A stretch of 64,000 nucleotides of DNA from an uncultured Chloroflexia bacterium (GTDB taxonomy: Bacteria; Chloroflexota; Anaerolineae; Promineifilales; Promineifilaceae): the NCBI GenBank assembly GCA_963701435.1, contig CAVPAL010000010.1, positions 200,100-264,099 of the forward strand, given 5' to 3'. Both the position numbers and the translations under genes were made by a program. The stretch's first letter is position 1, and each line of letters starts with the position of its first letter. Below the pieces are notes generated by a model. The model ran no database searches. It was given only the letters and a program-made list of their open reading frames with translations, and was not told the DNA's origin. Shown one piece after another: positions 4,906 to 29,152 of this stretch.

Positions 4906-5399
4906 CGCATTTGCATGCCAATATGAATCAACCGCTTTCGCGCGTTGTCTGCCCGGGGCAGATCGTGATTCACAGCTTGCAAGAGCGAGAAGCGACTTTT
5001 TATACCTTTGGCGGCTCACTCGAAAGCGAAGCGCTGCCGGGCGAAACCGTTTTTTCGATCCGATCTGCTGCGCCGGTGCTGGGACTGCTGCCGGATCGGG
5101 TAACAAGTGCCGATTTGCTGGCTGACGAGACAGAATCTTTGTTTGCGCGAGCCAAGGCTCAACAGCAGCTATCCTCTCAGCAACTGCTGGATCGGCTGGT
5201 AAGGGCGGGGTCAGAAGCTGTATATCTGGCGGTCTTGCAATCGTTGCTGTCAGAAGATGACGAGACGGCCGTTCCCCATCACCACCATTACGACTTCATC
5301 AACATGCTCACTCGTGAGCGTAACTGGTACCAAAAGACAGGCCGATGGCCTTTAAATCCACACGATCTCGCCACGCTACTACAAACGGTGGGCGAATAG
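4902..5399 (+). CDS. Hypothetical protein (165 aa)
   Basis: Long ORF with coding-like composition. No family recognised. Confidence 0.5.
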   Translation: MTHLHANMNQPLSRVVCPGQIVIHSLQEREATFYTFGGSLESEALPGETVFSIRSAAPVLGLLPDRVTSADLLADETESLFARAKAQQQLSSQQLLDRLVRAGSEAVYLAVLQSLLSEDDETAVPHHHHYDFINMLTRERNWYQKTGRWPLNPHDLATLLQTVGE

Positions 5400-5424
5400 C
5401 TGTACATTTTTTTGAGGTAGTATC

Positions 5425-5886
5425 ATGAAACGACTCGCTTTCCCTAATCCATTTCCCCATGCGCACCCACCGGTACAGGATGTCAATGAAATTCTGGAGG
5501 AGCAGGCGACGACCGGCGAACGCGCAGCCGATTGGGTAGTAACGGCCGTTGGTTCCTGGCGTTTTATTATCGGCCAAAGCGTTCTGATACTGATATGGAT
5601 CATCCTGAACATAACGGCCTGGGTCAAACATTGGGATCCCTTCCCCTTTATCTTAATGAATCTCGTCCTTTCCATGCAAGCTGCCTTAACGGCGCCTGTG
5701 ATTATGATGAGTCAAAATCGGCAGTCGACACGTGACCGGTTGGAGGCCCAAAATGATTTTCTGATCAACCAAAAAGCCGAAGTGGAAATCAGAGTCATCC
5801 TGGAACATCTAGACGCGCACAACGAGGCGCTGGGGGAGATTTATCATTTGTTAGCCCGGCTGCAAGAAAATCGACAGGGTTTGTGA
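5425..5886 (+). CDS. DUF1003-family membrane protein
   Basis: Two TM helices plus WDPFPFILMNLVLSMQAALTAPVIMMSQNRQ, typical of DUF1003. Confidence 0.8.
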   Translation: MKRLAFPNPFPHAHPPVQDVNEILEEQATTGERAADWVVTAVGSWRFIIGQSVLILIWIILNITAWVKHWDPFPFILMNLVLSMQAALTAPVIMMSQNRQSTRDRLEAQNDFLINQKAEVEIRVILEHLDAHNEALGEIYHLLARLQENRQGL

Positions 5887-5977
5887 TGGCTGTTAGTTCG
5901 CTGCGTAAACAGTTACGGCCGTTTCCTTTTTCTACTACGTTTTAATCTTTTTATTTGAAGAACTTTCTGCGTTATGT

Positions 5978-6082
5978 CTACTCGCTATTTTTCTGCTGCC
6001 GTTTTTGAACCTGGGGCACAAGAATGGCGATTAGCAACAGCGCCAGAAACATTGACAATACAAATGCGCCTATTAAATCCAT
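5978..6082 (-). CDS. Candidate 34-aa hydrophobic peptide MDLIGAFVLSMFLALLLIAILVPQVQKRQQKNSE
   Basis: AGGAG lies about 8 nt upstream of the ATG. The peptide has a single TM helix and a basic tail. It is below the ORF-track cutoff. Confidence 0.3.
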   Translation of the reverse strand: MDLIGAFVLSMFLALLLIAILVPQVQKRQQKNSE

Positions 6083-6101
6083 GGGTTTCTCCTGAAAATA
6101 G

Positions 6102-6154
6102 CCTCCCGGAGGTTTCGTTTATGATGAGCGTTCCCGATGAAAACCTCCGGGAGG
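6102..6154 (-). other. Perfect 14-bp stem hairpin between the recombinase stop and the small ORF
   Basis: CCTCCCGGAGGTTT (6102-6115) pairs with AAACCTCCGGGAGG (6141-6154), leaving a 25-nt loop. Confidence 0.6.
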
Positions 6155-6214
6155 TTGGTTTTCATCGCTTTTGGTGTGCGGAACGCTCATGTCAACTCCT
6201 GGTTGAATTTTTCT

Positions 6215-7303
6215 TTATTCTATCCCATTTTGTTGCAGTTGGGCAGCTTCTGTGGGGGAAATATCGACATTATCCAGCCATTCGGCGACGATGTGGACGC
6301 CCAGCACAGGCGCGTAAATATTTCGTGTAGTTGACACATCGGCGTGTCCCAGATACTCCTGTACGACCTCAAGCGGCATACCTTCACGCAGCAGTTGTGT
6401 CGCGCGAAAATGCCTGAAATCATGCGCCGAAATACTGTCGTGCAGGTGCAGGGCGCGCACTGCTTTTTTGACGATATTGTGCGCCGAGGTCATAGTCAGG
6501 CGCGCGTTTTTTGCGTTGCGGCTGTGGGAAACAAACAGCGCCGGATTGCTGTCACGCCGCTCGTTCAGATAGGTCACAATCGCCTGGCGCGCGTAATCGC
6601 GCACAAAAATGGTGCGCGGTTTGCTGCCTTTGCCCATGATGGTGGCAAATTCGGAACGGCCGTTATCGACGCTGTGCCGGTTCAGAGCAACTACTTCAGA
6701 GATGCGCGCGGCGGTTGAATACAGCACTTTGACCAGCATACGGTCACGCAAAAGCGACAAACGCCGGTTGTATTTGTCATTTTCCGGCGGCAGCGGTAGT
6801 TCGTCGTAGTAGCTGATGATTTTGGGGATTTCCTGGCGGGCGTGATCTAGATCAATGACGGTTTCGGCCTGATTGCGCTCAATCTGGCGGCGCGACATCT
6901 GGCGCTGTAGTTTGCCAAGCTGCACCCCCGGCGGCAGTTCGTCCTGGCCGTCCAGATAGTGCAAATAACCAACAACGGCGGCCATGTAGGTTGTCACGGT
7001 GGCGCGGGAACGGTTGGCCAGCAGCCAGTTGCGGAAATTGAGCAGAACGGCCGTTGTGAGCCGCTCAGGCGTCAATGGCCAGACATCCTCGTTGGAAAAG
7101 CCCGCTTTTTGAAAATGCTGCAGCCAGTCGGCAAACAGGCGCAGCCCGCTGCGATAGGTGCTTTCCGTTTTCCAACTGCGCGCGCCCGCTTCCAATAAAA
7201 AACTCGTTTCATAGAGCCAGGCGGGTTCAGCGGGTAACGGCCGTTCTGAAATCGGTAAGGTTTTTTGCCGGTTTGATCCACCCATTTCATTTGATCCACC
7301 CAT
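6215..7303 (-). CDS. Tyrosine recombinase/integrase (XerC/D-phage integrase family)
   Basis: C-terminal catalytic region ...ARISEV...HDFRHFRATQLLREGMPLEVVQEYLGHADVSTTRNIYAPV. There are two in-frame ATGs (7303, 7285) from a tandem duplication. Confidence 0.85.
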   Translation of the reverse strand: MGGSNEMGGSNRQKTLPISERPLPAEPAWLYETSFLLEAGARSWKTESTYRSGLRLFADWLQHFQKAGFSNEDVWPLTPERLTTAVLLNFRNWLLANRSRATVTTYMAAVVGYLHYLDGQDELPPGVQLGKLQRQMSRRQIERNQAETVIDLDHARQEIPKIISYYDELPLPPENDKYNRRLSLLRDRMLVKVLYSTAARISEVVALNRHSVDNGRSEFATIMGKGSKPRTIFVRDYARQAIVTYLNERRDSNPALFVSHSRNAKNARLTMTSAHNIVKKAVRALHLHDSISAHDFRHFRATQLLREGMPLEVVQEYLGHADVSTTRNIYAPVLGVHIVAEWLDNVDISPTEAAQLQQNGIE

Positions 7304-20282: not shown

Positions 20283-22523
20283 GATTGTAGTTCCTCCATG
20301 CTCAACTGCGACAGCGCAATTTCCTGGTATGTTTCGCAACTCTGCATTAATTCGTCGTGCGTGCCTTTGCCGACTACGCGACCCTTTTCGAGCACAATAA
20401 TCTGTTCAGCATTCTTAACCGTGGCGACGCGCTGCGTTACCACCAACTTGGTGCTTTTCTCGGCGCCGTTTCGCAGCGCTCGACGCAAGGCGGCGTCCGT
20501 CTTGAAGTCCAGCGCGGAGAAAGTGTCGTCAAAGATGTAGATTGGCGCTTTCTTAACCAAGGCGCGGGCGATGGAAAGGCGCTGTCTTTGGCCGCCAGAG
20601 ACGTTTGTGCCGCCCTGGGAGATTTCGGTAGCTAAGCCTTCGGGTTTGCTGTCGACGAATTCGGCTGCTTGTGCGATGGCAACGGCCGTATGCAATTCCT
20701 CTTCATTTGCATTTTCGTCCGCATAGCGCAGGTTGCTCTCAATCGTGCCGGAGAACAAGATGCCCCGCTGCGGGATATAGCCGATCTTCTCGCGCAAGTC
20801 GTGCTGGGTCACCGATCGGACGTCCTGGCCATCGAGCAAAATGTCGCCGGCAGTGACGTCGTAGAAGCGGGGAATCAGGTTGACCACCGTGGATTTGCCG
20901 GAGCCGGTAGAGCCGATGAAGGCTGTGGTTTCTCCCGGCCGGGCGGCAAAGCTGATATCGTGTAATACATCCTCGTCAGCTCCAGGATAACGGAAGGAGA
21001 CGTTGCGGAACTCCACCTTGCCGCGAAAATCGCCGTTTAGACGCACCGGCTGGGGCGGATCCAGAATAATCGATTCCGTTTCCAGCACATCGGCGATGCG
21101 GTCGGCCGATACGGCCGCGCGCGGCAGCAGAATGAAGAGCATCGACATCATCAAGAAGGCAAAAACGATCTGCATCGCATATTGCAAGAAGGCCATCATA
21201 TCGCCCACTTGCATGGTGCCGAGCGCCACCTGATGCGAGCCAACCCAGAGGATGACAATCGAAAGCACGTTCAGGATGAGAAACATGATCGGCATCATGA
21301 TCGCCATAAGCCGGGCGACAAAGAGCGTGTTGTCGGCCAATTCCGCGTTGGCTTTATCGAAGCGATCTTCTTCGAACTGCTGCATATTGAAGGCGCGGAT
21401 GACCAGCATGCCGGAGAGATTCTCGCGGGCGACCAGGTTCAGCCGGTCAACGAGCTTTTGCATAATGCGGAACCTGGGCAGCGCAATGGAAATGAGGGTG
21501 ATGATCACGCCGATCAGGACAACCACAGCCAGGGCAATGGTCCACCACATGGAGGGGCCGGTATTCATGGCGCGGATAATGCCGCCGATACCCAGAATGG
21601 GCGCATAAAAGACCAGGCGCACGGTGATCATGGTCATCGTTTGCAATTGGGTGACATCGTTGGTGTTGCGCGTGATCAGCGAGGCGGTGGGAAACTTATC
21701 GAATTCGGCGCTGGAGAAGCTCGCGACCTTCTTGAAGACATCACCACGCAGGTCGCGTGCGCTGCCAGAGGCGATCTTGGCCGAAAGATAGCCGACGCTG
21801 ATGCTGCAAAGCGCCGAAAGCAAGCGTGATCACCAACATGATCGCGCCGGTGGATAAAATGTAGCGGTTTTGCAGCGTGCTCACATCCCGACCCAGCGCT
21901 TCATACTCGGCTTTTACCTGGGCGATGGAGGTTTGTTCAATGAATGATTCGTCCAACGCCTCCAGGCGCTCAGTCACCGCATCCCCTAGCTGGGCGCGCT
22001 GGGCAGCAGGCAAGCGATCTAACAGCGCGAAGAGGTCGGTGCCGGGGGGGATGGCGGGAAAATCAAACTCGCCGCCGCCGAACATCTGCGCCGCTGCTTC
22101 CGGGTTGGCCATTGCCTGCTCCAGCGCAGAAACGACCACCCAGGCACGCGCCATCGGCGCGCTCAACTGATCAATTTCGTCCTGGCTGAGGTCGTTGCGG
22201 ATGTAGATCGATTGTTCGGCCAGGCCCGGATAGGTCTCAATGTAGTCGCTGGCCTGTGTGGAATCGGGCTGGACAAGCGTGTAGGCTTCGCGCAGCGCTT
22301 CCTCATCATCTGCGCCCATAAACAAAGCGAGTTGTTCCAACCGGCTGCTGCTCACTGCCTCGGATACGGCGCTTTCGATGCCGCTCAGTTGGACGCCGGT
22401 GTTGACAATCTGCGCCAGATAATCGGGCAAGGCCAGATCCAACATGGCCTGGATAAATAATAGAATGATGGAAGCTGCCAGCAGGAGCGTGTACGGCTTC
22501 AGGTACTTTCTTAATCGTAACAT
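20279..22523 (-). pseudogene. ABC exporter, fused TMD-NBD subunit (partner 1) with ~190-aa extracytoplasmic insert; split by a frameshift near 21815-21830
   Basis: ORF 21741..22523 ends ...GAIMLVITL, and ORF 20279..21823 continues LSALCSISVGYLSAKIASG.... The gene has Walker A GSTGSGKST and signature VSGGQRQR. The split may be a sequencing error. Confidence 0.8.
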
Positions 22524-22537
22524 AGTTCTGTTCTTCC

Positions 22538-23071
22538 TCAGAGAGCCTTGACTGCAGCAACCTGTGTACTCAATTTCTGCAGCAAGTTGAGCAAATCATC
22601 CTGTTCAGCGCTGCTCAGCGCGCCGAAAAAGTGGTCTATTGTCTCCAGATGGTGGTGCGTGTGTTCGCTGACGACGGCGCGGCCGGCGTCTGTCAGGCTA
22701 ATGTTAAAACGCCGTCGGTCATTGGGATCCAACCGCCGTTCAACCAGCCCTGCTTCCTCGAGATTACGGATAAAGGAACTCATGGTATTACGGCTGACGC
22801 CTTGCCGGTTACTAATTTCGGAAGGGTTCAATTCTGCGCGGTCGCCCATTTGCTCTGCAAAGAAGAGATGCATGAGCACACGATATTGCGCGTAGGAGAG
22901 CCCGGCGTCGTCCACGCTTTGCTCGCCTACATGGTAAATGGAGCGGGTCACGAATCCCAACTCATCCATCAGGCGAATGGTCTGGGGATCGATTTGGGGA
23001 TTGAAGCTTTGCATGAACTGCATCCACTTTTGGCGTTTATCCTTGTTCTGAAGCCAACTTTTATGACTCAT
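22538..23071 (-). CDS. MarR-family transcriptional regulator
   Basis: Winged HTH ...LNPSEISNRQGVSRNTMSSFIRNLEEAGLVERRLDPNDRRRFNISLT. It lies 14 nt upstream of the ABC genes. Confidence 0.9.
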   Translation of the reverse strand: MSHKSWLQNKDKRQKWMQFMQSFNPQIDPQTIRLMDELGFVTRSIYHVGEQSVDDAGLSYAQYRVLMHLFFAEQMGDRAELNPSEISNRQGVSRNTMSSFIRNLEEAGLVERRLDPNDRRRFNISLTDAGRAVVSEHTHHHLETIDHFFGALSSAEQDDLLNLLQKLSTQVAAVKAL

Positions 23072-23581: not shown

Positions 23582-23956
23582 TCACTGCTTTGTGACATAC
23601 TGCACCGAGTCAATCCCTTTAAAATCGACATCTTGCGTCCACAGGGTAGCGTTATATGCCCGGGTTGTCGCCAAAATGATGCTATCTGCCATAGTGAGTT
23701 TGCGTTCGGACGAAATAGTTGCCGCATTGACGGCGATTTCGCGCGTTAAATCGGCAATAAGCCCCAGGGACATGATTCCAATCGCTTGCAAAGCGCCTTC
23801 TTCTCCACGCTGAGTTAAGAGACGCTTGAACACTTCATACATACAAACTGTCGGCACGACCAAAGTATCAGTATTTTTTATAGCTGGAGCAAAGAAAGTT
23901 GCGTTTGTACCCCTGGCAAAAAACTCCAACCAACCTGAAGAATCGACCACATTCAT
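23582..23956 (-). CDS. vapC: PIN-domain toxin VapC
   Basis: N-terminal VVDSSGW, an acidic residue in MYEV, and a C-terminal TQDVDF motif. It overlaps the antitoxin gene by 4 nt. Confidence 0.9.
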   Translation of the reverse strand: MNVVDSSGWLEFFARGTNATFFAPAIKNTDTLVVPTVCMYEVFKRLLTQRGEEGALQAIGIMSLGLIADLTREIAVNAATISSERKLTMADSIILATTRAYNATLWTQDVDFKGIDSVQYVTKQ

Positions 23957-24165
23957 AATTCGCGATCTTCCTTTTCCCTTTGAGGATCGGTGTCGATGCC
24001 AACAAACATTCCTTCTGCTTCCTCAATCGGAGGCACAATGACCACCCGCAAAGTCTCCTTGAACGGTATGAACATAATTTTTTGCCCTGGTCTGAGATTA
24101 AACTGTTCACGGATGGGACGAGGAATTACCACCTGGTATTTTGATGAAATTGTAACTGTATTCAT
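23953..24165 (-). CDS. vapB: AbrB/SpoVT-type antitoxin VapB
   Basis: TISSKYQVVIPRPIREQFNLRPGQKIMF is a swapped-hairpin motif. Confidence 0.85.
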   Translation of the reverse strand: MNTVTISSKYQVVIPRPIREQFNLRPGQKIMFIPFKETLRVVIVPPIEEAEGMFVGIDTDPQREKEDREL

Positions 24166-24884: not shown

Positions 24885-25165
24885 TGCGGGCACAACGGCC
24901 GTTTCCCCCACCGCTGCCGATCTCTCCTGGCAAGCCGCAAATTAAAGTTGCACGTACGACATCTTTGAAAGTACAATTCCTTACTTCACACCTACCGAGC
25001 CATCTGATTACACAATGACCAGTTTGATGCAGGCGTTGGCTGGCAAACGGGGTACCGTTGGCACCAACTACTTTTATATCAACCGCGCTACCTGCGGGGG
25101 CGCCACAACCGCCTACTCGAATGAAGTTGGCGAGTTCGACTTTGCGATAGTGCCGGGAAACTGAT
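24885..25165 (+). pseudogene. Orphan 3' fragment paralogous to the C-terminus of the large surface protein
   Basis: 24951-25165 aligns gaplessly with 28441-28655 (...YDIFES...GTNYFYINRA.CGG...AYSNEVGEFDFAIVPGN*). It has an in-frame TAA at about 24942 and no start codon. Confidence 0.7.
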
Positions 25166-25228
25166 TAATGCGGGGTACGGAATAAAACCACGGCATAATC
25201 AAGCAAGAGGATTTAGGAGAATGTATTT

Positions 25229-28200
25229 ATGAATAGTCATCAACCGCATCGTTCCAGAAAATTAATACAGCGCCTGCCAGTCATCACGCTCATAATGTTG
25301 CTCATGGTTGTCCTAGGGTTTGTTTTCGCCAATATGGGAACGGCCGTTGCCGAAACGACCGTTTTGCCACCCACTAGCACGTCGGCAGGTTTAGTTTCCT
25401 ACTGGCCATTTGACGATGGTACTGGCAGCACGGCCACCAACAGCATCACAGCCATACTTGATGGAAGTTTGAATGGGGGCGCCTCCTGGTCAACCGATGT
25501 GGCCCCGCTGCTCGACCCCAATCCCTACGCCATCGCCCTCGACGGCTCAACAGGTTTTGTCGAAATACCGGATGACGACGCCATCGACTTTGACACCAAC
25601 CAGGATTTCACGGTCGCCTTCTGGACAAAGCCCGCTGCCACGCAAAATCCCACCGGGAGCAACAACAGATAACGCCATCATCGAAAAATGGTCGGAAGTT
25701 GGTGGGTATCCTTATGTTGTGCGCTATATCAACCAACTGGGTGGAGCGAATGCCGGCAAAATCTCTGTGGCACGTTATGACACCAATGTTGACCCAGCCA
25801 TTTTTTCGACAGGCTCCATTAATGATGGCAGCTATCATCATGTGGCGATGGTGCGCGGTGGCGGCGGCAGCGGGACAATCAGTCTCTATATTGACGGTGT
25901 TTTGCAAGCAACCATCACCGATACAGTGAGCCTGCCCACGACCAACAGCAGCCCCTTATTTGTGGGCAAGCGCGGCAATAATATCAATTATTACAGCGGT
26001 CTGGTCGATGATTTACGCATCTACAACAGTGCCCTTACCAGCAGTGAGGTTGCCTATTTGGGCGCCGGGTGTCCTGATTTTCCCGTCACAGTGGCTACTG
26101 AAGCGGCCTTAAATAGCACGATTACCTGCTTCAACAGCCTGACAACCGCAGGCAATTACAAACTCACCCTGACGGCCGACATCAACCTGACAGCTTCTAC
26201 GACGGCCATCAATAACAGCACAGCCGGAGTCGAACTGCATATTGATGGCGATGGGCACACGGTTGATGGCCAGGATCAATCTGGCGTACGGCCGTTTTAT
26301 GTGGCCGCCAACACCGTTGTGACCCTGAGCCAGATTACGCTCACTGGGGGCAACGTCGCGGATTATGGGGGCGGGCTTCGTAATGCAGGCTTTACCACAA
26401 TTCAAAACAGCACCATCTCTGCCAATGATGGAAACATTATAGGTGGTGGCATCTACAACAATGGCACGATGGCGATCAATAGCAGCACCATCTCCGGCAA
26501 TCAGGCGGACTACGGTGGTGGCATTGCTAACGAGTCAAATATGACTGTCACGAACAGTACGATCTCCGGCAACCAGGCACAAATCTGGGGGGGTGGCATC
26601 AACAACTTCGGCACGCTGACAGTCACTAATGTTACCATTTCTGATAATGGAGCCCCCAATGGTGGCGGCATATACACGGGTGCGGCTTTGAATCTTATCA
26701 ACAGTGTCATTGCCAACAGTAATTCAGGTGGCGACTGCAAGATTACAGGGGCAGGAACCGTGAGTGCTGTTTACAGCCTCATAGAGGATTCGGGGGCTTC
26801 TGCATGCAATTTGAGCAACGGAACAAACAACAATATCATCGGCCAAGATCCCAACTTGGGCGCCCTGCAAGACAATGGTGGGCCTACCCAGACCATGGCT
26901 CTGCAACTAGGCTCTTTTGCTATCGATGCGGCCGATGACAGCACCTGTGCGGCTGATCCGATCAACGGCCTCGACCAGCGCGGTGTCGTGCGTCCGTTCG
27001 GGCCGCATTGTGATATTGGCGCTTTTGAATTTACCACAGTGACACAGCCAGGACCCGATTTTGTGGTAAATACCGCTGCTGACACCGATGATGACGTTTG
27101 CGACTTACTCGGTCAAGGAGTAGGCAACCAGGATTGCACCCTGCGCGAAGCGATCAATGCTGCCAACGCCAATGCCGACGGGAGCGTGATCACTTTTGCT
27201 GGAGATTACACATTGACGCTTAGTTCTGTTCTGCCGGATATCAGCACGAATATTATCATTGACGGTGCAGGCCAGGCAATTGCAGTTGATGGCGATAATA
27301 CTTACCGTATTTTCTATGTAAACTCTACCGGGGATCTTTCAATCAATGCGCTTACGATGCAGAATGGGTATTCGGACTCTACTGCAGGCATTGACAATCT
27401 TTTTGGCGTCGTAACCGTGAGCAATAGTCTATTTAGGGATAACAATGGCGGCAGTACTGCTGGGGCCATTCATAACTACTTCGGATCTGTGATTATCTCA
27501 AACAGTACATTCTACAACAATTCAAGCGGCGGTTTTTCGGGAGGCGTCGCTAATATTGGCGGGTCTGCGAGCATCAACAATGCTACCTTTAGCGGCAACA
27601 GCAGCGGAGCGGCAACCATCTACACCATTGCAGGGGGTTGCTTTACTGAAAAGGCGCAGATATTAATGGCTGATGGTCATACTAAAAGCGTGGCTGAGAT
27701 AGGGGTCGGGGATCAGGTACTCAGCTATGACTTTGCTTCAGGTCAGCAAGTTGTCCACGAAGTGACGGATGTGTTTAACTACTCAGTAGACGCCTTTTTA
27801 ATCATCAATGATTTGGAAGTTACCCGTGAGCATCCCTTTGCCATTGGCGAGGATGAATGGATTATGGCGGGCGAACTCAAAATTGGCGACCGCATACTGG
27901 GGTCGAACGGTTGGACGACAGTCACCAGCATTGCTGCCGTGGAACAGCCGGTAGAAGTCTACAACTTCACCGTAGATGGTACCCACAATTACTATGTCAG
28001 CGATGGCACGCATACCTACCTGGCGCACAATAAAGAGTTGGCTGCAAACGCTGGTGAAGTTACCTTGACCAACAGTATTATCACCGACAGTATCGGCCCT
28101 GATTGTTTAAAAGTAGGTTTGGGCACCTTTACCGGTGGGAATAATTTGCTTGATGACTATGCCAGCGGCGACTGCGCAGCCATTAGCGACGACGCGGTAA

Positions 28201-28655
28201 CTGGTCTGGCCAGCACCCCAGATGATCACGGGGGACCAACCAACACCATCGCCCTGTTAGCACCTTCCAACGCGCTAGGCGCTGGGAATGGTTTGTCCTG
28301 TGAAACCAGCGATCAGCGTGGTGTGGCGCGTCCCCAGGGTGTGGCTTGTGACGTAGGAGCTTATGAGTTTTGGGGGGTGGGGATAACGGCCGTTACCACA
28401 ACCGATGCCTCACTAGACTGGAATAACGCGAATTCAAGCTGTACGTATGACATCTTTGAAAGCACAACGCCCTACTTCGCCCCGACCAATCCAGCTACCT
28501 ACACAACAGTTAGTTTAATGCAGGCTTTGACAGGCAAACTGGGTACAGTCGGTACCAACTATTTTTACATCAACCGCGCTGCCTGTGGCGGCATCATAAC
28601 CGCTTACTCGAATGAAGTCGGCGAGTTCGACTTTGCGATAGTGCCGGGGAACTAA
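25229..28655 (+). pseudogene. Large secreted LamG (Laminin_G_3) / right-handed beta-helix (CSLREA, choice-of-anchor-Q-like) / Hint / FN3-like surface protein; frameshift near 25640-25670
   Basis: The signal anchor and the LamG start (FTVAFWTKPAATQNPTGS) are in ORF 25229..25672. The rest (IIEKW...DDLRIYNSALT) is in ORF 25473..28655. It contains repeated GGGIxN...NSTISGN units, CTLREAINAANAN and DQRGVVRPFGPHCDIGAFEF (twice). The shift may be a sequencing error. Confidence 0.8.
27639..28031 (+). other. Hint module (mini-intein/bacterial intein-like, 131 aa)
   Basis: Starts at Cys in GG|CFTEKAQILMADG, contains TREHPF, and ends VYNFTVDGTHNYYVSDGTHTYLAHN|K. Confidence 0.8.
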
Positions 28656-29152
28656 CGAATGCGAAGTGCGGAATGCAGAGTGATTGTTCCGCACTCCGCT
28701 TTCCGCATTCTACATTCAGGCAACGGCCGTTTCCTAATCAGCCAAAACCGCATCCATCGTTTCCTGGGATTGATGTGTCGCTGCAACTGCAGCGTGTGCG
28801 GCCGTTCAGAAGTTGCAACTGTTGAGTTTGGAAACAAAAGCGGCAAATAGTTCTGTTTCACCCTGGCTCCAACCGCCAGAGCCATGCATGCCACGCTGAA
28901 GGTATCCGGCCAAATCCTTGGTTAACAAATCTGGGCGATAGGTCAGGGCCAAAGGGGGGCCTGGATAGACACCCGCACGTAATTTGAAAAAACCTAATCC
29001 TATGCGTATGGTCTACGGCCGTTGACCACCATGTAATAGATCAATTCGCAATGTAAATACCACCTTCTGCTGAATTTATGCGGCTCAAGTAGGGACGCCC
29101 GCTGGCGCGTCTCTACAATCGTTATCTTGCCCAACAAATTCAAAACAAATGG

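Follow-up and report, generated by a model that had tools for sequence, protein, structure and literature searches.

The 64,000-nucleotide stretch of DNA analyzed here, referred to as the window, belongs to contig CAVPAL010000010.1 of an uncultured Chloroflexia bacterium and carries, on its forward strand, a gene for a large and probably secreted protein in which a 131-amino-acid (aa) Hint module is found among LamG, beta-helix and choice-of-anchor Q domains. Based on its family, its predicted fold, its catalytic residues and its place in the host, we consider it likely that this module is a bacterial intein-like (BIL) domain of type A from the Pfam family PF07591, and that it forms a fixed, vertically inherited part of the secreted LamG/beta-helix/choice-of-anchor Q protein and is not a mobile intein. 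The module corresponds to aa 723-853 of the open reading frame (ORF) 25473-28655 (1060 aa, plus strand), and to aa 804-934 of the protein obtained when an upstream frameshift is corrected. Its translation starts with CFTEKAQILMADG, contains TREHPF and ends with VYNFTVDGTHNYYVSDGTHTYLAHN; it is preceded by ...AATIYTIAGG and directly followed by KELAANAGEVTLTNSIIT, in which Lys comes first (KELAAN...).

An earlier examination of the letters alone (the sequence-only reading) had proposed this 131-aa module with its N-terminal Cys, the TREHPF motif and the final YLAHN, and the translation places all of them exactly where that reading had put them. The downstream flank that it quoted was incorrect, as it skips the six residues KELAAN between the terminal Asn and AGEVTLTNS. 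The features of the module and of its host gene are listed in Table 1.

Table 1. Features of the Hint module and its host gene, in window coordinates. A1 is the alignment of 15 beta-helix-hosted sequences and L001 the syntenic contig, both described in the text; a caret marks a predicted cleavage site.
Feature	Positions	Strand	Evidence or remark
Predicted Sec signal peptide/anchor, MNSHQPHRSRKLIQR-LPVITLIMLLMVVLGFVFANMG-TAVA^E, true gene start	25229-25351	+	read by eye from translation
LamG-like domain (Laminin_G_3), spans the frameshift	25541-26054	+	PF13385, E=5.6e-21, ORF aa 88-194
Frameshift site, one extra base, AACAACAGATAA	25660-25670	+	L001 reads AACAAC-GATAA
First beta-helix block, N-S-T-I-S-G-N...G-G-G-I units	26079-26846	+	sequence; homologue annotation
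First choice-of-anchor Q domain	26847-27032	+	NCBIfam NF041518, best stretch aa 459-520
CSLREA N-terminal motif, opens the second module of the host	27060-27167	+	TIGR04214, E=4e-11, aa 530-565
Second beta-helix block, N-extein side, ends ...NNATFSGNSSGAATIYTIAGG	27168-27638	+	sequence, AlphaFold model
Hint / A-type BIL module, 131 aa	27639-28031	+	Pfam PF07591, PDB 2LWY, AlphaFold2/Foldseek
Cys1, predicted nucleophile of the N-S acyl shift, sole Cys of the module	27639-27641	+	translation
Block B, T62-R-E-H65 (T-x-x-H)	27822-27833	+	translation; T and H-P-F-A invariant in A1
Block F, VYNFTVDGTHNYYV	27957-27998	+	translation
Block G, YLAHN: penultimate His130 and terminal Asn131 (predicted succinimide former)	28017-28031	+	H and N invariant in A1
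Lys +1, first C-extein residue	28032-28034	+	invariant in A1
C-extein: KELAAN linker, last rung (AGEVTLTNSIITDS), second choice-of-anchor Q domain	28032-28373	+	second NF041518 stretch
C-terminal domain of about 95 aa, no Pfam match, ends NEVGEFDFAIVPGN, and stop	28374-28655	+	shared with homologues

Family and fold of the module

The module matches PF07591 (PT-HINT, "Pretoxin HINT") with 67.3 bits (E=2e-18), and the whole ORF with 62 bits, against a cut-off of 27.7. The characterized A-type BIL CthBIL4 (the sequence of 2LWY), which served as positive control, scores 176 bits in the same family and covers the whole model, indicating that PF07591 is the family in which the A-type BILs are held. 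On the other hand, the module gave no match at E<=0.1 to PF13403 (Hint_2), which we take to be the Pfam family covering the B-type BILs. The models for inteins, Hedgehog-Hint and Vint domains yielded marginal or sub-threshold partial matches only: Intein_splicing reached 28.8 with a cut-off of 35.8, Hom_end_hint 31.7 with a cut-off of 32.1, and PF01079 (Hint) 30.1 with a cut-off of 29.7, in a match confined to the first 43 residues, while TIGR01443 (intein_Cterm) lies above its cut-off (17.5 vs 15.6) but covers only the 18-residue block G motif. In a sequence search of the PDB the best match was 2LWY, a "bacterial intein-like domain" (E=3e-11), followed by 8W20, presumably an Rhs-type protein, whose 1368 aa include a Hint near the C-terminal region (profile E=1.5e-19, with an alignment that runs through ...LVHN).

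Modeled by AlphaFold2 with flanks of 40 aa, the module adopts the HINT fold, with a mean predicted local distance difference test (pLDDT) of 87.2 and a predicted template modeling (pTM) score of 0.75. Foldseek ranked BIL2 first (6Y75/6TMM; E=9e-13 and about 30% identity for 6Y75) and 2LWY next (TM-score 0.86, root-mean-square deviation 1.6 A, about 27% identity), followed by mini-inteins and then by Hedgehog; among the 61 PDB matches at E<=1e-3, the best 50 consist entirely of BIL, intein, Hedgehog and Vint domains. The same ranking was obtained with a 536-aa model of the whole second module of the host, in which the Hint blocks have pLDDT values of 81-95.

At position 4 of block F the module carries Asn (V-Y-N, 27957-27965), as does CthBIL4 (VYNFKV), while 8W20 carries Asp (AYD). 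Asp is the usual residue of class-1 inteins here and aids branch formation, so the Asn is consistent with a lost transesterification step. The 131 residues match only Hint-type Pfam models and contain no endonuclease or remnant of one, and no second Hint was found elsewhere in the 64-kb window. Across the module the opposite strand is free of ORFs of at least 80 aa, and the DNA at its two boundaries shows neither direct nor inverted repeats. The GC content of the module is 0.49, compared with 0.52 for the gene. Neither an endonuclease, nor flanking repeats, nor a deviating GC content thus marks the module as mobile.

A-type BIL domains were reportedly described by Amitai et al. in 2003 and by Dassa et al. 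in 2004, and the structure of CthBIL4 (2LWY) is said to be that of Aranko et al., 2013. Type A is defined by a C-terminal His-Asn and the absence of a +1 nucleophile, its members lie in hypervariable regions of non-conserved bacterial proteins, and their products come mostly from cleavage and in some cases from splicing (PMC4031507, PMC7765530, PMC7664689). The C-terminal His-Asn is also what separates type A from type B (PMC4031507, PMC7765530), and a B-type BIL was rejected here based on this terminus and on the lack of a PF13403 match. The module has every sequence-level feature of type A, namely Cys1, T-x-x-H, the His-Asn end, a Lys at +1 and mini size. It shares with CthBIL4 the PF07591 family, the fold, the "VYN" of block F and the lack of an endonuclease, and, like other BIL domains, whose hosts are variable, secreted and repetitive proteins (PMC7765530), it resides in a host of this kind. 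It differs from the A-type BILs in that it is only about 27% identical to CthBIL4, that its own clade has an invariant Lys at +1, and that its host is a LamG/CSLREA/choice-of-anchor Q beta-helix protein entered at a fixed GGGI phase.

These results support the A-type BIL reading of the module. They also bear out what the sequence-only reading had anticipated: a Hint-family profile match, a structural match to Hint domains, the lack of an endonuclease, and a preference for an A-type BIL over a canonical intein. The family, the BIL-like fold, the His-Asn end, the Lys at +1 and the variable turn of the host all point to the A-type BIL.

A Hedgehog-type Hog domain was also considered and rejected, since the Hint is internal, keeps His-Asn and is followed by a 207-aa C-extein, and since PF01079 is matched only in part. 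The Hog domain (1AT0) has the same HINT fold (TM-score 0.67) and a Cys thioester that is resolved without a +1 side chain; unlike the module, it is the last domain of its protein and is associated with a sterol-recognition region and with cholesterol. Some proteobacterial relatives of the module do have a Hog-like terminal position.

The insertion site and the host gene

None of the 120 best full-length homologues of the host protein carries PF07591. When the Hint is removed in silico, Hint-less homologues align over the junction with the pattern ..GG^G-I-x-N-x-G-x-L-T-L-x-N-S-I-I, in which the caret marks the insertion point; two examples are ...SASTNGG^GIAHQSSGALTLNNSILANS in P0061 and ...GEGGGVYE-ASGTVTLNNAIITNS in P0001. 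The proposal that the module interrupts a repeat unit is therefore correct, and the Hint with its linkers (IAGG and KELAAN) fills the turn that leads from the GGGI strand to the following rung, the final one ahead of the second choice-of-anchor Q domain. Both models show short beta-strands with pLDDT >80 at the flanks of the insert. Compared with P0001, which has no Hint, about 10 residues of linker (IAGG...KELAAN) come in addition to the module. The site is thus a variable turn of a non-essential repeat protein, whose secretion is predicted from its leader.

This site also bears on whether the module could be a canonical class-1 mini-intein, that is, a selfish element which splices cleanly and leaves an uninterrupted host protein. 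Class-1 mini-inteins such as Npu DnaB (4O1R), Ssp DnaB (1MI8) and gp41-1 (6QAZ) have the same HINT fold (TM-scores 0.75-0.81), the same blocks A, B, F and G and a similar mini size, their first (N-S acyl shift) and third (Asn cyclization) steps are also predicted for the module, they follow the BILs in the Foldseek ranking, and intein models of Pfam and NCBIfam match the module weakly. However, the Lys at +1, found here and in 18/18 close relatives, provides no nucleophile for transesterification, Intein_splicing and Hom_end_hint stay below the cut-offs whereas PT-HINT passes its own, and no endonuclease or remnant was found. Class-1 inteins have Cys, Ser or Thr at +1, occupy conserved sites in essential proteins, are inserted exactly and are often mobile, whereas the host of the module is a non-essential repeat protein, the site is a variable turn, and some 10 extra linker residues indicate an imprecise insertion. 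A mini-intein is accordingly very improbable.

The sequence-only reading had described the host as a LamG/CSLREA/beta-helix/FN3 protein with a signal anchor. Pfam and NCBIfam models identify LamG_3, CSLREA and two choice-of-anchor Q domains, while the FN3 label is left without a Pfam match and falls in a region of low pLDDT. As for the anchor, a leader-like stretch is present by eye, with a basic n-region, a hydrophobic core of about 22 residues and an A-V-A site, and the homologue P0001 starts with a similar leader; nevertheless, it lies in another frame (ORF 25229-25672), because of an extra base near 25667. The LamG domain starts in that same ORF, at aa 105-140. The repeats of homologues that correspond to the first beta-helix block are annotated as PF13229 (Beta_helix) and PF02415 (Chlam_PMP), and the second block appears in the AlphaFold model as repeated short strands with pLDDT 82-92; the host part has a weak Foldseek likeness to the beta-helix enzymes VexL (6FI2) and GH110 (7JW4). 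NF041518 matches the whole protein with E=2e-41 over two stretches, and the C-extein aligns internally with aa 406-520 of the same protein.

The C-terminal 95 aa or so have no Pfam match, a pLDDT of 36-65 and only non-significant Foldseek matches to FN3. This domain, which ends in NEVGEF(D/T)FAIVPG(N/S/G), is common to P0001, P0043, P0050, P0131 and P0133, and could be an uncharacterized sorting or anchoring domain of choice-of-anchor Q proteins. A 296-nt direct repeat of the 3' end of the gene (24888-25183 vs 28379-28674, 78% identical) lies immediately upstream of the gene. Its translation is ...NYFYINRATCGGATTAYSNEVGEFDFAIVPGN*, and it seems to be what is left of a tandem paralogue after the loss of its body.

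The nature of the C-extein is what decides on a further alternative, in which the module would be the pre-toxin HINT of a polymorphic toxin and would free a C-terminal toxin paired with an immunity gene. The family that the module shares with 8W20 is named "Pretoxin HINT", 8W20 is its second-best PDB sequence match, and NCBI names some of its relatives "polymorphic toxin-type HINT domain-containing protein". However, the C-extein of 207 aa consists of ordinary host sequence (the last rung, the choice-of-anchor Q domain and the C-terminal domain), and the Hint-less P0001 has it too, with an identity of 45% for aa 854-967 and of 83% for aa 968-1060. The Pfam scans gave no match to a toxin family, and the downstream genes, one of them SpoIIAA-like and the others without a called family, are on the opposite strand and look unrelated. 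In polymorphic toxins the domain precedes a toxin, and 8W20 has Asn at +1; here no toxin/immunity pair was found. We thus give this possibility hardly any weight.

The extra base at about 25667 places the leader and the early LamG part in ORF 25229-25672, which ends at TAA; when base 25667 is removed, a single ORF of 1141 aa (25229-28655) results. The homologues P0001 and P0005 are uninterrupted at this point, where they read KPAATQNPTGSN(T/S)DN(A/S)I(I/L)EKW. The contig L001 (ENA ERZ25039600 contig_17376), which is syntenic with the window and 97.3% identical to it, is without one A at 25667 and is in frame there. Relative to L001 the window has other single-base insertions, at 21822 and 22952, by which unrelated genes are broken or shortened: the former affects the ABC transporter ORFs 20279-21823/21741-22523, and the latter the MarR regulator 22538-23071, which has 177 aa here and 238 aa in L001. 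L001 is itself a noisy assembly, with 38 extra-base indels of its own. Because L001 is in frame and similar insertions disrupt unrelated genes, the comparison suggests that the frameshift is probably an assembly error and not a pseudogenization; programmed frameshifting at 25667 was rejected on the same two observations. Two further overlapping ORF pairs are present in the window, at 2558-3112/2904-3545 and 44362-44865/44553-45689.

This also reduces the weight of a reading in which decay has set in, either in the Hint or across the gene, and the module is left as an inactive relic, a tolerated structural bulge in a pseudogene. The frameshift that splits the gene, the presence of the L001 gene in at least three called pieces, and the remnant of a paralogue 3' end just upstream would all agree with decay. 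Against it, the catalytic residues are all intact, no other part of the protein is as well conserved among relatives as the module, and orthologues are intact in many assemblies; moreover, the base at 25667 is missing from L001, the insertions at 21822 and 22952 point to assembly errors, and the extra-base indels of L001 account for a noisy sequence. We regard a relic as quite improbable.

Two observations concern the neighborhood. A PIN-domain gene (23582-23956, minus strand) and an AbrB/MazE-like gene (23953-24165, minus strand) form an apparent toxin-antitoxin pair upstream, which is conserved in L001. At L001 13443-14043 there are about 600 bases that the window does not have at about 30373, with a DDE_Tnp_1_4 transposase fragment at L001 13524-14081, which indicates an insertion-sequence difference between two very close strains.

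Relatives of the module and the lysine that follows it

Relatives were collected by an exhaustive phmmer search, which returned 12,988 proteins at E<=1e-3; a word-indexed search gave no match with the module alone, and with alignment A1 it gave only short proteins of 371 aa or less. P0121, on L001, is a copy with 98-99% identity. In about a dozen further clusters at 50% identity, a GGGI beta-helix protein carries its Hint at the phase of the repeat seen here, with the shared pattern GGGIxxx^CF...L(V/A)HN^K...xxLxNxxI (carets mark the two junctions). The arrangement also turned up when GTDB genomes were scanned, in Chloroflexota metagenome-assembled genomes (MAGs; loci L002-L005 and L015) assigned to Anaerolineales, Promineifilum, "Chloroflexia" and an unclassified Chloroflexota MAG. 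The names given to homologues likewise suggest Chloroflexota for the window. Compared with nine Hint-bearing relatives, identity is 53-65% in the Hint, 31-46% in the N-extein and 44-57% in the C-extein, and in the 15 beta-helix-hosted sequences of A1, Cys1, T..HPFA, HN and K+1 are invariant (15/15).

When 225 Hint copies were placed in a neighbor-joining tree, the 13 beta-helix-hosted copies that are closest formed a clade with no other member, and all 20 hosted copies fell inside a clade of 26 tips. The Promineifilum orthologue cluster has 14 members from many independent assemblies, 12 of them full length at 1164 aa, and the orthologues are publicly named "hypothetical", "choice-of-anchor Q" or "beta-helix repeat", never Hint or intein. 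The fixed phase, the conserved Hint, the exclusive clade and the intact orthologues fit one old insertion that has been inherited and selected for, as opposed to a mobile intein.

The residue at +1 was counted in the 197 complete Hint copies of the 150 best relatives. Residue 1 is Cys in 195 of them. At +1, Lys occurs 125 times and Ala 26 times, whereas nucleophilic residues are rare or missing (Ser 6, Thr 2, Cys 0). By context, and in non-redundant copies, Lys is found at +1 in 18/18 of those hosted by a beta-helix, in 28/33 of those in which the Hint is the last domain (...LVHNK, KY, KQ or KG, then stop) and in 81/159 of those in tandem arrays. At this position 8W20 carries Asn, and Ala is reportedly found in the Clostridium BIL of Dassa et al. 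(2004). In the sequences compared, Lys +1 is therefore a conserved trait of this Hint subfamily and not an arbitrary non-nucleophile. The sequence-only reading had noted the non-nucleophilic Lys, which the translation contains, but it missed both its conservation and the upstream frameshift.

The relatives include several other architectures. P0128, P0137, P0165 and P0179 have a signal peptide, then three to five tandem Hints (...LVHNKGGG^CF..., with the caret between copies) and a tail rich in Gly, Tyr and His. P0126, P0146, P0154, P0157, P0162, P0163 and L010 (a Woesearchaeota MAG, 5203-6804) encode two-Hint proteins, in which the first copy ends in ...LVHNK and the second is divergent, is without His-Asn and closes the protein with ...NGW. 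In L007, L008, L011, L013 and L014, from Proteobacteria MAGs, ORFs that end near locus position 6400 have a Hedgehog-like layout, with a FecR-like N-terminal pattern, an acidic or glycine-rich linker and a terminal Hint that ends in ...LVHNK, KY, KQ, KG, KD or KIQ before the stop; P0272 combines PF04773 with PF07591.

Predicted processing and its significance

Type A BILs are described as forming a thioester and cyclizing their terminal Asn, after which the liberated amino group of the C-fragment attacks the thioester; most of the products are those of cleavage (PMC4031507, PMC7664689). For the present protein, the conserved residues suggest the following course. The Sec leader would export the protein, which would then fold. 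Cys1, aided by Thr62 and His65 of block B, would turn the peptide bond between Gly(-1) and Cys1 into a thioester, and Asn131, aided by His130 and the His of block F, would cyclize to a succinimide and cut the Asn131-Lys(+1) bond. As there is no Cys, Ser or Thr at +1, no branched ester intermediate is expected, and the thioester would be either hydrolyzed or attacked by the amine of the freed C-fragment. From a precursor of 113 kDa without its leader, hydrolysis would give an N-fragment of 77.5 kDa, a Hint of 14.5 kDa and a C-fragment of 21.1 kDa, while amine attack would give a ligated product of 98.7 kDa (all values calculated).

The analysis itself shows the fold and family of the module, the presence and conservation of its catalytic residues and its place in the host; the occurrence, order, location and biological purpose of the reactions are what we infer from them. 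Sec substrates cross the membrane unfolded, and for this reason export would come before processing. Since the beta-helix that harbors the Hint in one of its turns would be folded, the two cut parts could remain associated as a nicked helix; alternatively, cleavage could release the LamG/beta-helix part from the choice-of-anchor Q and C-terminal part. The purpose is probably the nicking or shedding of the large N-terminal part, or post-translational diversification.

Several points weigh against this account of an active A-type BIL in an exported host. The activity of the module and of the members of its clade is predicted from conserved catalytic residues, export is predicted from a leader read by eye, and the neighbor-joining tree carries no support values. 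In the sequence as given the gene is frameshifted upstream of the module, so the precursor might not be made in this genome. Finally, the standard mechanism of BILs assigns no role to the conserved Lys +1, which is kept even where the Hint is terminal, with 1-7 residues after it. The persistence of this Lys without a textbook role suggests that the standard scheme may be incomplete for this subfamily.

In one alternative, which we consider unlikely, the Cys1 thioester is not hydrolyzed but resolved by a dedicated amine, in which case the Hint would be a ligase or attachment device and not a cleavage device. The candidate amines are the epsilon-amino group of Lys +1, giving an isopeptide "spliced" product, or an external nucleophile of the surface or of a target, as in Hedgehog and BUBL. 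Besides the frequencies of Lys given above (18/18 hosted, 28/33 C-terminal and 125/197 overall, with nucleophiles almost absent), the best structural match of the module, BIL2 of Tetrahymena thermophila BUBL1 (6Y75/6TMM), is reported to form an isopeptide between a lysine epsilon-amine and a C-terminus, ligating through a lysine amine and not through the side chain of Cys, Ser or Thr (PMC8616854). Close relatives in which a terminal Hint is followed only by K, KY, KQ or KG have a Hedgehog-like layout, where only the chemistry of the N-junction can matter. On the opposite side, the nucleophilic Lys of BUBL is reported to belong to the following ubiquitin-like domain and not to be the residue at +1 (PMC8616854), the Lys could equally be structural or tune Asn cyclization, and about one third of the copies in the wider subfamily carry Ala or another residue at +1. 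BIL2 is, moreover, eukaryotic, zinc-regulated and located between ubiquitin-like domains, whereas the Lys of the module is a candidate only.

In its specific form, this alternative proposes that the Hint subfamily to which the module belongs (CF...LVHN^K) has recruited Lys +1 as its own amine nucleophile or catalytic residue, so that the C-terminus of the N-extein becomes isopeptide-linked to the epsilon-amine of the Lys, in place of plain cleavage or ligation through the alpha-amine. We hold this to be a tentative proposal of low probability, although it would explain why Lys is kept as the last or nearly the last residue of some proteins. If it is true, the lysine-directed ligation reported for BIL2 of Tetrahymena would have a bacterial counterpart that acts in cis.

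Returning to the A-type BIL reading, BIL domains have been known since 2003, and their role, poorly understood, is thought to be the diversification or release of secreted proteins. A literature search for Hint or intein-like domains together with CSLREA, choice-of-anchor or Chloroflexi found no account of the context presented here. The novelty is modest, and consists of a Chloroflexota clade with a fixed insertion phase, an invariant Lys +1, and public names from which Hint and intein are absent, which indicates that a predicted autoprocessing domain has been overlooked in the naming of these proteins. A 131-aa, single-cysteine Hint that is independent of the +1 residue may also be of use as a protein-engineering tool.

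Promineifilum and the Anaerolineales are abundant in soil and activated sludge. The small and coherent clade described here, which is mainly from Chloroflexota and in which the Hint is better conserved than its host, makes it possible to ask directly if a surface beta-helix is nicked, shed or re-ligated by its BIL; the current understanding of these domains would be left unchanged by the clade itself, unless its lysine chemistry proves to be new.

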